This document shows, piece by piece, positions 166-10,956 of a DNA stretch of 10,956 bases. The first letter of the stretch is position 1. The number at the start of each line of letters is the position of its first letter. The notes beneath the pieces were generated by a model that worked only from the letters and a program-made list of their open reading frames with translations, had not been told where the DNA came from and did not search any database. Position numbers and translations under genes: made by a program. Source of the stretch: a virus (taxonomy: Duplodnaviria > Heunggongvirae > Uroviricota > Caudoviricetes); IMG/VR virus record IMGVR_UViG_2541047722_000006; one strand, given 5' to 3'.

Positions 166-219
166 CCTGTTTACCTCTTTCTCAGGAAGTTTAGTCTCCA
201 GGATTCCCGGGGCGGTTCA
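1..219 (-). mobile_element. IS629 (IS3 family), partial copy running off the window start; left terminal repeat at 219
   Basis: The reverse complement of 1-219 is identical to the first 219 bp of the complete copy at 3495-3713 (TGAACCGCCCCGGGAATCCTGGAGACTAAACTTCC...). The terminus abuts unrelated sequence at 219/220. Confidence 0.9.
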
Positions 220-731
220 GCCCTGTTAACACTGCCACTGTTGGGCAACTTCAGAACCACTGTCTCACCGCATTATCTCAAGGCGCAACTGAATTAAATA
301 TCCATATATCAAGTCAGGGAGGGGAAACTGCTGCTGGCTTTACTGCGTATAACTTTCTTAAGTCACTCCCTGTTACCGTTAGAACTCACAACATAAGCAA
401 TGTTGAATCCATAGCTAATATCGTTTTCCTGGCTGGCTCAGAACGTTTCGCAAACCCATTATCAAGATTCCTGTTACATCCTCTATTATGGTGCTTTGCC
501 TCCCCAGCCGCCGACCATGCCAGATTGAGAGAGTACGGGAAATGCCTCGATAACGATCTTGATCGCTTCGTTGAGACGTTCAATATCGACATCGGAACCC
601 ATATTAGGTGGGCATCCCTGATAGCAGACTCGACCATTTTGGATGCTAACAAGGCTCTTGAGCATGGCATAATTAATTCCATAAAAACTGCAAGGCTGGC
701 ATCCAATCAGGCAAACTGGTGGGTTGTTTGA
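220..731 (+). pseudogene. ClpP-like (peptidase S14 fold) serine protease gene, 5' end removed or interrupted by IS629
   Basis: The plus frame is open with no stop from the IS629 junction (220) to TGA at 729-731. The translation (...NIHYSSGGETAAGFTAYNFLKSLPVTVRTHNISNVESIANIVFLAGSERFANPLSRFLLHPLL...IADSTILDANKALEHGIINSIK) aligns by eye with E. coli ClpP ([63 protein letters not shown]...[21 protein letters not shown]). Candidate Ser/His/Asp positions are present. There is no in-frame start between the junction and the TTG at 525, and about 40 or more N-terminal residues expected from ClpP are missing. Confidence 0.55.
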
Positions 732-1900: not shown

Positions 1901-1979
1901 CCACCGTTCTATCACCGACTAACTTTACTCCCACTCCTATACATCATCTGGTATCCTGCGCAAAACTAAGGAGGTTGGT

Positions 1980-2330
1980 GTGAATGCTCAGTCTGTCATC
2001 ATGGTTTTCCTTGGGCTGATTGTCGCAAAACTATATCCAGACTGGTGGAAAGGGGCATTAGCTACTGTCGCCATCTATTTGCTTTTATCCATCGTTAAGC
2101 GATCACTCGCTGAGACCGTAAATCAAGCAAAACGTTTCTCATTTAAGAGTTTAATAAACTATGTTACTGGGCTTATTTTTTGCCTTTCAATTCTGATCGC
2201 TTCGGCTTTTTTGCCCGTATCAATAGCTAATTTTTTTGGCGCACCATATGAGGTAGGTTATCTATTCTCTGTTTCCTGTCTTGCCATTGCTCTTCTTTAC
2301 CTGTGGACGAGATCAAAGAATAAAAATTAG
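1980..2330 (+). CDS. Small multi-pass inner-membrane protein (116 aa), possible superinfection-exclusion-type moron
   Basis: GTG start at 1980 with a strong AAGGAGG (1968-1974) 5 nt upstream. Three to four hydrophobic helices (SVIMVFLGLIVAKLY, ALATVAIYLLLSIV, LINYVTGLIFCLSILIASAFLPV, VGYLFSVSCLAIALLYLW) and a basic C-terminus (TRSKNKN). AT-rich, convergent with gp16. Confidence 0.6.
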   Translation: MNAQSVIMVFLGLIVAKLYPDWWKGALATVAIYLLLSIVKRSLAETVNQAKRFSFKSLINYVTGLIFCLSILIASAFLPVSIANFFGAPYEVGYLFSVSCLAIALLYLWTRSKNKN

Positions 2331-2347
2331 CCATCCGTGGCTGCCAG

Positions 2348-3494
2348 TTATTGAGCTTCTTTTTGTGATGCCTGTGCGACTCTGGTGAGCGATTGTGTGA
2401 CCGTACTGATCGCTCTGTCATATGCTGTGCTACCTTTTGGCGTATTTGCCAGACGTAACAAGGCATTTCGTATAACAGGGCTTTCGTATGCCTTCGCAGC
2501 TCCTCCTACGACACCAGCAGCAGGAACAACAAACGCAGCCGTTTTTAGCATCCCCGCTAATACTGCTGCGTTTATGATGCCACCACCAACTAACAATCCA
2601 TAAAGCTGCTGACCATTTAAGTTTTGAACGTTCGCTTTTGCCGCGTGTCTTGTATCGTTGAGGTATTTAATAACGCCGTCCAGTTCCTTTCCATGTACGC
2701 CTTTAAAGAAAGTTGCTGATTGCTTCCTGTTCCGGTGTAACGCATTAATAAACTTTTCAACACTAATATTTCCAGACGGATCAGTCGCCTTATCTACAGC
2801 ATTCTGAACTATGGCTGCTCGTGCGTTTTGCCTACCATTGTCATCCAGAAGCCTGTAAAGCTGAGAACGTTCTGATGGGTTTTGGCTAAAAACGAGTTTT
2901 GTTACATCCTCAGGTGTAGCCTTGCCGCTGGCTATTGCCTTTTGAACGCGCGTTCTTCCCATCATGTCATTGAATCTAGCCCATGAGCGATCAACCCTAG
3001 ACATATTGGCAGCTTCTTCTGAGCCTAGTTTTTGGGATACTGCTTTTTTCATATCCGCTGTATATGCCTTGTAGACAATATCGCTGGCTTTCTGGAGCGT
3101 GTCTTTATCAACAGTCTCGTTTGAATTCATGAACCGCTTTCGAAGGTCAGTTCTGTTTTCTCTCGCCAGACGCAGGTCATTGGGTCCGCTGGTGATATCG
3201 TCTTTAAATTGCTGCAAGACTTTTACCGCGGCTCTATCCTGAGATTTGCCCGGGCGGCTTAACACGGCAATCTGATTGTCGATAGCTTTTACCGTGTTTG
3301 AGAGATCGACAGGGGTATCCCCCATAGCGTCAATTATGCGGTTATATCGCTTTCCTGCTGCCTCAATGAATTTTTGTTGCCCTTTAGTCGCAGATTCATA
3401 AAGCTGTTTATCAGAAATGCCACCCAGACCATCGCTAAATGTTCTGACTAAATTTTCTCGTGCTTGTTGTTGATTCAGCCGATTCTTACCGGTT
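2348..3494 (-). pseudogene. P22 gp16-like DNA-ejection (transfer) protein, C-terminal fragment separated from its 5' part by IS629
   Basis: The minus frame is open from the IS629 junction (3494) to TAA at 2350-2348 (checked codon by codon for 3326-3494). It is in frame with the N-terminal fragment once the IS and one copy of the duplication are removed. Position after gp20 matches P22 gene order. Confidence 0.8.
3492..3494. repeat. Target-site duplication (GTT), left copy, of the IS629 insertion in gp16
   Basis: GTT immediately precedes the IS629 terminus TGAACCGCC at 3495; the same triplet follows the other terminus at 4805-4807. Confidence 0.6.
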
Positions 3495-3548
3495 TGAACC
3501 GCCCCGGGAATCCTGGAGACTAAACTTCCTGAGAAAGAGGTAAACAGG

Positions 3549-3875
3549 ATGACTAAAAATACTCGTTTTTCCCCCGAAGTCCGTCAACGGGCAGTCCGTA
3601 TGGTTCTGGAAAGTCAGAGCGAATATGACTCACAATGGGCGACAATTTGTTCCATTGCTCCAAAGATTGGCTGTACGCCGGAGACTCTGCGTGTCTGGGT
3701 TCGCCAGCATGAGCGGGATACCGGGGGCGGTGATGGAGGGCTCACCACCGCTGAACGTCAGCGTCTGAAAGAGCTGGAACGTGAAAATCGTGAACTGCGC
3801 CGCAGTAACGATATCCTTCGCCAGGCTTCCGCTTATTTTGCGAAGGCGGAGTTCGACCGCCTCTGGAAAAAATGA
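3549..3875 (+). CDS. IS629 transposase OrfA (108 aa, HTH DNA-binding part)
   Basis: ATG at 3549 preceded by AGAGGT. The protein has the leucine-zipper-like C-terminus ([29 protein letters not shown]) typical of IS3-family OrfA. Confidence 0.9.
3867..3873 (+). promoter_or_regulatory. Putative programmed -1 ribosomal frameshift site (A6 run) for the OrfAB fusion transposase
   Basis: AAAAAA at 3867-3872 lies at the end of orfA, just before its TGA (3873-3875); orfB begins in the -1 frame at 3872. IS3-family elements are known to make a fused OrfAB transposase by -1 slippage. Confidence 0.5.
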
Positions 3876-4762
3876 TGCCACTGCTGGATAAGCTGCGTGA
3901 GCAGTACGGGGTCGGACCGCTATGCAGCGAACTGCATATTGCCCCGTCAACGTATTACCACTGTCAGCAACAGCGACATCATCCGGATAAACGCAGTGCC
4001 CGTGCGCAGCGCGATGACTGGCTGAAGAAAGAGATACAGCGCGTATACGATGAAAATCACAAGGTATACGGTGTGCGTAAAGTCTGGCGTCAGTTGTTAC
4101 GGGAAGGTATCAGAGTGGCCAGATGCACTGTGGCACGTCTCATGGCGGTTATGGGACTTGCCGGTGTTCTCCGGGGTAAAAAGGTCCGTACGACCATCAG
4201 CCGGAAAGCCGTTGCCGCAGGCGACCGCGTAAACCGTCAGTTCGTGGCAGAACGACCTGACCAGCTGTGGGTGGCTGATTTTACTTACGTCAGCACATGG
4301 CGGGGCTTCGTCTATGTGGCGTTCATCATTGATGTGTTTGCCGGATACATCGTGGGGTGGCGGGTCTCATCGTCCATGGAAACGACATTCGTGCTGGATG
4401 CACTGGAGCAGGCGTTATGGGCCCGTCGACCGTCCGGCACGGTCCATCACAGTGATAAAGGTTCTCAGTATGTATCGCTGGCCTACACACAGCGGCTTAA
4501 GGAAGCCGGATTACTGGCATCAACAGGAAGTACAGGCGACTCGTATGACAACGCGATGGCGGAGAGCATCAATGGTCTTTACAAAGCGGAGGTAATACAC
4601 CGTAAGAGCTGGAAAAACCGTGCAGAAGTGGAACTGGCCACACTCACGTGGGTGGACTGGTATAACAATCGACGATTGCTGGAAAGGCTGGGCCATACTC
4701 CTCCGGCAGAAGCAGAAAAAGCTTATTATGCTTCCATCGGAAACGATGATCTGGCAGCCTGA
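3872..4762 (+). CDS. IS629 transposase OrfB (DDE/RNase H-fold catalytic part, 296 aa); expressed mainly as an OrfAB fusion spanning 3549-4762
   Basis: ORF in the -1 frame relative to orfA, overlapping it by 4 nt. Contains motifs of an IS3-family integrase core (WVADFTYV...HHSDKGSQY...[15 protein letters not shown]). Confidence 0.9.
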
Positions 4763-4804
4763 GTTCACAGATAAAACACTCTCCAGGAAACCCGGGGCGG
4801 TTCA

Positions 4805-4807
4805 GTT
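4805..4807. repeat. Target-site duplication (GTT), right copy, of the IS629 insertion in gp16
   Basis: GTT directly after the IS629 right terminus at 4804, matching 3492-3494. Confidence 0.6.
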
Positions 4808-5676
4808 CCAAAAAAAGGAACTCTTTCGCCTAATGTCTGAGCCTGACTCTGCATAAAGGTTTTATCTTTCAGCGTGTCACTGGTCATTAACGGCAGGTTT
4901 CTTTCCGACGCAAAATCGACAGCAGCCTTTGCTTCCGGTGACATCTCACCGCGAACAGCCCTGGAAACCGCACTAACTGTATTTTCCAGCCCCTTGCCAA
5001 CACCACCAATGCCAGCAGAAATTACCGTTTGTGCAGGATCAATATCTTCTCCGCCAGCAAGGCTGGTGCCACCCTGTAGTGCTAAATCTGTAGCAGCTGA
5101 TTTCCCTATGGCACCAAGCACCGTTCCAGCCCTGCCCGCTGGTGTGAACGCTAACGCATTAGCAAGAAACGAAGTCAGGTCTTGCGGTGATAAACCTGGC
5201 TTGTTCAGGGCATAATCACCGGATGGCAGGGAAACGATAGTGTTACCCTTCTCATCCTGCCTTAATTTCGCCCCCATACTCTGAAGAATCTTTTCCTGAG
5301 ACGCGTCGGAGCCGAAAAGTTGAGACCATCCAGCCTTCAGGGCATCCATGCTTAGTGAGTTCAACTCAGGGGCAGCCCCAACATTTTGCAGTCTCTCCAT
5401 TTCTGGTGTCATTCGGCTTTCACCGGTAACGGCATCGCGCATTGCAGCACCTAAAACAGCCCCTTGCTCAGCAGAGCGATCTAGTCCTTCCTTCTGCTGA
5501 GTGGCAAGCTGTGCATATCCTGATGCAAGTGAGTTGTCTGCTGGCGATTGCTGAACACCTTGTTGTGTTGGCGCTGACTGACCAGCAAAATACTCATCAA
5601 TGGCGGACCCAATATCTTCCGTGCTCGTACCATCAGGAAAGGTAAATGTCTTACCATTTGCAGTTACTTTCATCAT
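4805..5676 (-). pseudogene. P22 gp16-like DNA-ejection (transfer) protein, N-terminal fragment truncated by IS629
   Basis: ATG at 5676 overlaps the gp20 stop (ATGA). The N-terminus [33 protein letters not shown] matches my memory of P22 gp16. The present ORF (4765-5676) reads 12 codons into IS629 (EPPRVSWRVFYL) before stopping; native sequence ends at 4805. Confidence 0.8.
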
Positions 5677-10861: not shown

Positions 10862-10956
10862 TGAACCGCCCCGGGAATCCTGGAGACTAAACTTCCTGAG
10901 AAAGAGGTAAACAGGATGACTAAAAATACTCGTTTTTCCCCCGAAGTCCGTCAACG
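10862..10956 (+). mobile_element. IS629 (IS3 family), partial copy running off the window end; left terminal repeat at 10862
   Basis: 10862-10956 is identical to the first 95 bp of the complete copy (TGAACCGCCCCGGGAATCCTGGAGACTAAACTTCCTGAGAAAGAGGTAAACAGGATGACTAAAAATACTCG...). Confidence 0.9.
10916..10956 (+). CDS. IS629 transposase OrfA, first 13 codons (continues beyond window end)
   Basis: ATG at 10916 with the same AGAGGT ribosome-binding site as the complete copy; translation [13 protein letters not shown]. Confidence 0.8.
   Translation, partial: MTKNTRFSPEVRQ

Follow-up and report, generated by a model that had tools for sequence, protein, structure and literature searches.

What role could be played by a small membrane protein encoded between gene 16 of a P22-like prophage and a divergently oriented toxin operon? 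This question was raised by a 10,956-nt stretch of viral DNA (IMG/VR record IMGVR_UViG_2541047722_000006), referred to here as the window. An earlier note, prepared from the letters alone, had drawn attention to a 116-aa protein with three to four predicted transmembrane helices, and had suggested that it could be either an exclusion factor analogous to SieA of phage P22 or a membrane component of a larger defence system formed with the neighbouring operon.

The 116-aa gene and its prophage

The ORF was found in the sequence as the earlier note had described it, at positions 1980-2330 on the plus strand, with a GTG start and a TAG stop. The strong ribosome-binding site and the short basic tail were likewise present, the former as the Shine-Dalgarno (SD) sequence AAGGAGG at 1968-1974, 5 nt ahead of the GTG, and the latter as the C-terminal residues RSKNKN. 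The RefSeq/PGAP annotation is shorter, beginning at the ATG at 2001 and yielding a "hypothetical protein" of 109 aa (WP_011703616.1). We consider GTG 1980 the better start, because the internal Met is replaced by Ile in one homologue (P0006), because four homologues that are 38% identical open with MN.Q and carry an ATG at the position of GTG 1980, and because the same GTG, preceded by the same leader, begins unrelated ORFs in other prophages. The dN/dS ratio was 0.39-0.46 against alleles 88% identical, and the frame was kept intact at 115-120 aa in the 38%-identical homologues, in which synonymous sites are saturated (pS ~0.8, pN ~0.43). Together with the occurrence of the gene in 227 of 5426 complete E. 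coli genomes, these values indicate that the ORF is more than a chance reading frame. It is a real gene under purifying selection, with a moron-like GC content of ~41% compared with 45-52% in gene 16.

Hydropathy analysis, the topology check proposed in the earlier note, identified four hydrophobic segments at residues ~4-16, 25-39, 58-84 and 93-110, and the AlphaFold2 model likewise consisted of four helices, at low confidence (pLDDT 62.8). In all ten aligned members, Lys and Arg were concentrated in the loop at residues 40-57 (+3 to +6) and in the C-terminal tail (+1 to +3), a pattern that leads to a predicted N-in/C-in topology with two very short periplasmic turns of eight residues each. 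The invariant residues of the family were K17-L18-Y19-P20, L11, V15, L27, F53, Y61, G64, L65, F67, P79, L108 and R111. The KLYP turn at residues 17-20, being the first periplasmic turn of the predicted topology, would face the periplasm.

The family proved to be small and confined in its distribution. It comprised 19 clusters at 90% identity, and the clusters named by source came from E. coli, Salmonella, Yersinia or Edwardsiella only, all of them Enterobacterales; within E. coli it was frequent in ST95-type K1 ExPEC/APEC genomes. An exhaustive profile search recovered 7 clusters at 50% identity among 1.84 billion representatives; no more than four distant clusters were gained in this way, each of them in the same genomic context. 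The family was absent from 50,697 sequenced phage records (tblastn; nothing better than E = 8) and from PHROGs. Scans of the protein against Pfam, PHROGs, NCBIfam and PADLOC returned sub-threshold noise only, with no GtrA-like, SMR or transporter model in Pfam at E <= 10 and no GtrA-like or SMR model in NCBIfam at E <= 1. At the level of structure, a Foldseek search of the AlphaFold2 model against BFVD gave no match below E = 0.3, and a profile search with the family gave 0 PDB matches at E <= 1. In the open-access literature, no paper named the protein or its neighbours by accession, and we found no experimental or transcript evidence for the gene there.

The window was 100% identical to a P22-like prophage located at argW, beside yfdC, in E. 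coli S88, APEC O1 and ATCC 11775, which corresponds to the prophage type "APEC-1" (PMC2629481). The minus strand carries its late genes, arranged as gp4, gp10, gp26, gp14, gp7, gp20 and gp16, and past gene 16 begins the "ant moron" region, which is hypervariable in P22-like phages (PMC2629481, PMC8022706). Proceeding outward from gene 16, we observed the 116-aa gene (+), the 188-aa/YafO-like operon (-), and a ClpP-like gene and mnt (+); intact relatives continue with arc, ant and the tailspike gene. Gene 16 encodes a CUS-3-type gp16 and is present in two parts, a 3' part at 2348..3494 (-; phrog_29117 and phrog_770, DNA transfer protein) and a 5' part upstream of an insertion at 4805..5673 (-; assigned by comparison with S88), both at 100% identity with the uninterrupted gene of E. 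coli S88. The stop codons of gene 16 and the 116-aa ORF are 17 nt apart. Between the two convergent genes, a G+C-rich hairpin followed by a T-run at 2329..2342 (-), which overlaps the stop of the 116-aa ORF and was recognised by consensus match, looks like a terminator for the gene-16 transcript.

The element interrupting gene 16 is a complete 1310-bp member of the IS3 family at 3495-4804, which we take to be IS629-like, with a target duplication of 3 bp on either side (3492-3494 and 4805-4807). The window also begins and ends in partial copies of this element, the left one inverted (1-219) and the right one extending from ~10862 to 10956. An Rfam scan matched only the IS3 frameshift pseudoknot, at 3830-3946, and no RNA family at the 116-aa locus. 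The IS copies in gene 16 and at the window ends indicate that the prophage is defective here; the 116-aa gene is intact within it. The left partial copy also cuts the 5' end of the ClpP-like ORF at 195-731 (+), to which RefSeq gives the name "ATP-dependent Clp protease proteolytic subunit". In the intact prophage this product is 178 aa long and its gene follows mnt. The ClpP-like gene recurs in many IMG/VR loci with differing genes next to gene 16, and its presence in the immI region is unusual.

We then considered the proposal that the 116-aa protein is the membrane part of one defence or toxin-antitoxin system with the divergent operon. The operon occupies 780-1804 on the minus strand and consists of a homologue of the YafO toxin family at 780-1229 (PF13957, 3.4e-22) and, upstream of it, the gene of the 188-aa protein at 1238-1804 (phrog_8416), for which Pfam and PHROGs gave no antitoxin-family match. 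The adjacency, the divergent orientation and the 175-nt intergenic region in common, which recur in ~51 E. coli genomes besides the window, speak for a single system. The co-occurrence check pointed the other way. The 116-aa gene was found with nothing inserted upstream in L029, with another divergent gene of 355 aa in L102, and beside other genes, without the operon, in genomic islands and in Yersinia and Edwardsiella; conversely, the 188-aa/YafO pair adjoined four other gene families at the same site. The pair behaves as an independent moron, with at least five different cassettes recorded beside it. Such independent assortment does not support a one-system reading. The upstream flanks are also shuffled relative to the ORFs at this site, and PADLOC gave no match. 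We therefore rejected the toxin-antitoxin-component reading on the ground of independent assortment, and regard it as scarcely credible.

The leader shared with sieA

In P22, gene 16 (+) and sieA (-) are convergent, 22 nt apart, and sieA has its own promoter. The window contains the equivalent arrangement, gene 16 (-) facing the 116-aa ORF (+) across 17 nt, such that the 116-aa gene matches sieA in position and orientation: it directly follows gene 16, and converges on it, in the interval that separates genes 16 and 9 of a P22-like prophage. Comparison with P22 sieA, prophage HS1 and IMG/VR further identified a conserved leader, ATCATCTGGTATCCTGCGCAAAACTAAGGAGGTTGGTGTG, at 1943..1982 (+). The window sequence upstream of the 116-aa start reads GGTATCCTGCgCAAAACTAAGGAGGTTGGTGTG, and the P22 sieA leader is GGTATCCTGCaCAAAACTAAGGAGGTTGGTGTG, ending at the annotated sieA GTG. 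Thus ~37-40 nt before the GTG, together with the SD sequence and the GTG itself, are common to the 116-aa gene and P22 sieA, and the type-B sieA of HS1 has a close variant of the same leader; farther upstream, the window differs from the P22 sieA region. No canonical sigma-70 site was detected ahead of the 116-aa gene in a consensus scan, and the string TGgTATCCT (1949-1957) is a possible candidate for an extended -10 element. In published work on sieA, phages were excluded by single-copy constructs that extended 85 bp (P22) or 106 bp (HS1) upstream of the gene (PMC10883804).

The analogy with SieA drawn in the earlier note therefore stood as regards place, orientation, leader, ribosome-binding site and GTG, but homology of the products was not found. 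BLASTP of the 116-aa protein against P22 SieA gave E = 0.29, and hhalign of the family profile, the comparison with SieA that had been called for, gave probabilities of 1.9% against the type-A alignment and 0.08% against the HS1 type-B protein. The 116-aa protein did not match phrog_7745, which P22 SieA matches at 9e-109. Precomputed Pfam assignments were empty ("-") for 19 of 19 homologues, whereas SieA relatives carry PF26849; the copy of Pfam that we scanned lacks PF26849, so that our own scan is no test of SieA membership. The conserved cytoplasmic motif of SieA, FxRYPxEAxxFNK (PMC10883804), was absent in strict or relaxed form from all ten aligned members in a regular-expression search. 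Judged by these comparisons, the 116-aa protein is not a homologue of SieA types A and B.

SieA of P22 (types A-C; PF26849, phrog_7745; Leavitt et al. 2024, PMC10883804) and the 116-aa protein nevertheless share a locus, leader, SD sequence and GTG, and both are small multi-pass proteins, predicted to reside in the inner membrane and encoded by P22-like prophages. SieA has three to four membrane segments; for the 116-aa protein, four helices are predicted by hydropathy, the positive-inside rule and the low-confidence AlphaFold2 model. The two differ in length (162-212 aa for SieA versus 116 aa, with four closely packed transmembrane helices in the latter), and the 116-aa protein is without the C-terminal cytoplasmic segment that holds the SieA motif. 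Instead of a cytoplasmic motif, the family has its own motif, A-K-L-Y-P, predicted to face the periplasm.

We next asked what else follows this leader. An exact 22-mer from it, CAAAACTAAGGAGGTTGGTGTG, was present in at least 120 IMG/VR viral contigs, and ORFs were translated from the GTG in 118 complete cases among the matches listed. In these 118 loci, 12 ORF families unrelated by BLAST followed the leader and GTG, and all families that could be checked converged on gene 16. The 116-aa four-helix family accounted for 6 of the listed loci and SieA type A for 9. Two families with two transmembrane segments were 62 aa (12 loci; probably phage L orf62) and 75 aa (9 loci) in length, two others combined a transmembrane segment with a coiled coil (27 and 8 loci), and two had a single segment, namely a 149-aa family (5 loci) and the 106-aa family of phage N7 ORF14, in which it is N-terminal (6 loci). 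Signal-peptide-like N-termini characterised families of 129 aa (24 loci), 99 aa (5 loci) and 68 aa (2 loci). By hydropathy and inspection, 11 of the 12 families among the matches listed thus had a transmembrane or signal-like N-terminus; the remaining one, a 140-aa family (5 loci), is soluble, which means that the slot is not strictly reserved for envelope proteins. SieA was the only characterised family among these 12, and the others that were checked belong to PHROGs without assigned function.

These cassettes (phrog_5962, 2651, 21338 [phage L orf62 type], 7294, 19844, 10450 [phage N7 ORF14], 8100 and 21022) resemble the 116-aa gene in leader, in GTG and in their convergence on gene 16, and most of them encode small envelope proteins. 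They differ from the 116-aa family in being unrelated in sequence and in architecture, some having one or two transmembrane segments, others combining such a segment with a coiled coil or bearing a signal peptide, and in occurring in sequenced phages, in which the 116-aa family was not found. Conservation of the leader ended ~37-40 nt upstream of the GTG, and past that point about eight upstream flank types were shuffled relative to the slot ORF families among the matches listed. The site after gene 16 is thus of a cassette nature. One viral contig (L089) carries the 22-mer twice, at 2351-2372 and 4116-4137, with 1.7 kb from one copy to the other. Behind the first copy stands the 129-aa signal-peptide cassette, between the copies there is a 343-aa ORF on the minus strand, and the second copy is truncated where the locus ends. 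This arrangement suggests that slot cassettes can be stacked in tandem. In GTDB species-representative genome contigs the 22-mer had 0 matches, a zero that should not be taken as absence, since E. coli ATCC 11775 contains the leader at 100% identity and the collection has probably had this stretch masked.

Linkage to CUS-3-type gene 16

We examined the position of the 116-aa family relative to gene 16 in 18 loci, which took in the 38%-identical homologues, Yersinia, Edwardsiella, P22-like prophages and satellite-like islands. In 17 of them, a CUS-3-type gene 16 ended 17-23 nt from the family gene, and the single exception was a deletion remnant in an O111:H8 strain. The linked gp16 products were 60-94% identical to one another and ~30% identical to P22 gp16. 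The loci were of two kinds. Some are complete P22-like prophages, found in ST95-type strains of E. coli and in Yersinia enterocolitica, and the others represent an integrative island of ~20 kb.

This island encodes an integrase, an HTH protein, a TOPRIM/DUF927 primase, Ash- and AntA/AntB-family proteins, PerC and a Doc-type toxin. Of virion genes it has homologues of P22 gp14, gp7, gp20 and gp16 only; capsid, portal, terminase and tail genes are all missing. An example is L007 6091-25706, from E. coli U14A between yicC and yicG; L004 and L140 also carry the island, and L011 and L013 probably do so. By an estimate from evenly spaced rows, it is present in ~170 of 5426 complete E. coli genomes and makes up roughly three quarters of the E. 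coli occurrences of the family. The island resembles a phage satellite, one that would bring its own ejection proteins to a P22-like helper, and no paper on satellites carrying P22 ejection-protein genes was found in the open-access literature. Upstream of the 116-aa family gene, the islands contain an unannotated gap of ~1 kb (L004 5072-5983, L006 4976-5968), in which we found no convincing ORF and no Rfam match.

The linkage to one gp16 type could be functional, in view of the fact that the mutations by which phages escape SieA lie in gp16 and gp20 and, within gp16, in its C-terminal region (PMC10883804). The gp16 encoded next to the 106-aa allele was ~72% identical overall and ~53% identical in the last 150 residues. 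P22-type gp16 proteins with C-termini 95-100% identical were paired with five different slot families, and co-variation of slot gene and gp16 type as a general rule was dropped on account of this free exchange among near-identical C-termini. The same free exchange implies that the 116-aa gene may simply be physically linked to its gene 16. Phage N7 has the same gp16 type (64% identical) without the 116-aa gene.

Proposed superinfection exclusion and its alternatives

We favour, with a probability of about 0.5, the explanation that the 116-aa protein is a prophage-expressed inner-membrane superinfection-exclusion protein, analogous and not homologous to SieA. Its gene would take the place of sieA as another cassette for that slot in P22-like prophages. 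In the mechanism that we infer, from lysogen expression and topology to exclusion activity and target, the prophage would express the protein by way of the short leader and ribosome-binding site of sieA, and the protein, by analogy with SieA, would block DNA injection by superinfecting P22-like phages. The block would act at the inner membrane, through interference with assembly or function of the conduit formed by the ejection proteins gp20 and gp16, and its target may be phages with the CUS-3-type gp16 to which the gene is linked. No more than 22 of the 66 P22-like phages sequenced have sieA (PMC10883804), and the others could accommodate a functional substitute. A point against exclusion is that a satellite-like island would gain little by excluding a helper phage.

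Comparable proteins occur in other phages. The product of HK97 gene 15 is, like the 116-aa protein, a small prophage moron product predicted to lie in the inner membrane and encoded within a virion gene cluster, and it is proposed to block DNA entry via the conduit proteins of the incoming phage (cited in PMC10883804). It differs in belonging to a phage with a long non-contractile tail, in having no sequence relation to the 116-aa protein, and in targeting tape-measure and tail-tube proteins instead of gp16 and gp20. Imm of the lytic myovirus T4, whose gene stands in a different genomic context, is a small inner-membrane blocker of phage DNA injection of ~83 aa with two transmembrane segments. 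In the libraries scanned, the 116-aa protein showed no similarity to T4 Imm.

Prophage-expressed morons can also encode envelope proteins with other roles, as do Bor and Lom of phage lambda. The 116-aa gene could accordingly be a lysogenic-conversion moron unrelated to exclusion, acting for example in stress, serum or colicin resistance or in transport in ExPEC/APEC. The low GC content and the leader of its own fit such a gene, as does the frequency of the family in ST95-type K1 ExPEC/APEC genomes. Moreover, the slot accepts very different envelope proteins and one soluble protein, so that no single activity is needed, and 11 of its 12 families among the matches listed are uncharacterised. Nevertheless, the only characterised occupant behind the leader is an injection blocker (PMC10883804), the link to ejection-protein genes is strict even in islands without other virion genes, and Pfam contains no transporter, SMR or GtrA model matching at E <= 10. 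We consider this explanation rather improbable, though one to be taken seriously.

A closer tie to the neighbouring gene is conceivable if the protein were an accessory of the ejection module, a membrane partner that protects the producing cell from its own membrane-active gp16 or aids gp16 and that is co-inherited with the gp16 C-terminal region. The exclusive pairing with CUS-3-type gp16 over deep divergence would fit such a partner, as would the retention of the gene in islands whose sole virion genes are gp14, gp7, gp20 and gp16, and the divergence of the gp16 C-terminus next to the 106-aa allele (~53% against ~72% for the whole protein) points in the same direction. The 116-aa gene, however, is convergent with the late operon and outside it, and would be antisense to late read-through during lytic growth; phage N7 combines the gp16 type with a different slot gene, and slot genes are freely exchanged beside P22-type gp16. 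In addition, sieA itself is dispensable for growth of P22. An ejection-module accessory is therefore unlikely. As to a holin, an antiholin or a small membrane toxin, the small multi-pass architecture would suit any of these, and Pfam did return a sub-threshold match to Phage_holin_3_6 (E = 0.065). The earlier note had named similarity to a holin family as evidence that would tell against exclusion, but this match scored 13.7 bits, far below the 28.4-bit cut-off. The gene also lies in the ant-moron region, away from the lysis cassette; a strong ribosome-binding site would be ill-suited to a lethal protein at a position where the characterised gene, sieA, is expressed by the prophage (PMC10883804); and no significant holin was found among the structure matches. 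With the score below cut-off and the location wrong, we rejected the holin reading (e.g. PF07332), and the whole group is very unlikely.

A more far-reaching proposal, which we put forward only tentatively, is that the site is a slot for hot-swappable exclusion cassettes, in which a leader of ~40 nt and a fixed GTG would serve at least 12 envelope families, each blocking the gp7/gp20/gp16 conduit; the 116-aa version would be directed at CUS-3-type gp16 and would also travel on a widespread satellite-like island. In the open-access literature searched, we found no description of the shared leader/GTG junction, of the catalogue of envelope cassettes, or of the 116-aa family with its ejection-protein islands. 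If this proposal is true, P22-like phages without sieA may hold non-homologous substitutes in the same expression slot, and the conserved leader would provide a sequence tag for candidate exclusion genes in genomes and metagenomes. For the question, left by Leavitt et al. (PMC10883804), of how the gp20/gp16 conduit is stopped by a protein of the inner membrane, the slot would supply about a dozen independent, small, easily cloned proteins to compare. The 116-aa family, common in ST95-type ExPEC/APEC and on the island, could then influence the susceptibility of these bacteria to P22-like phages (Lederbergvirus).
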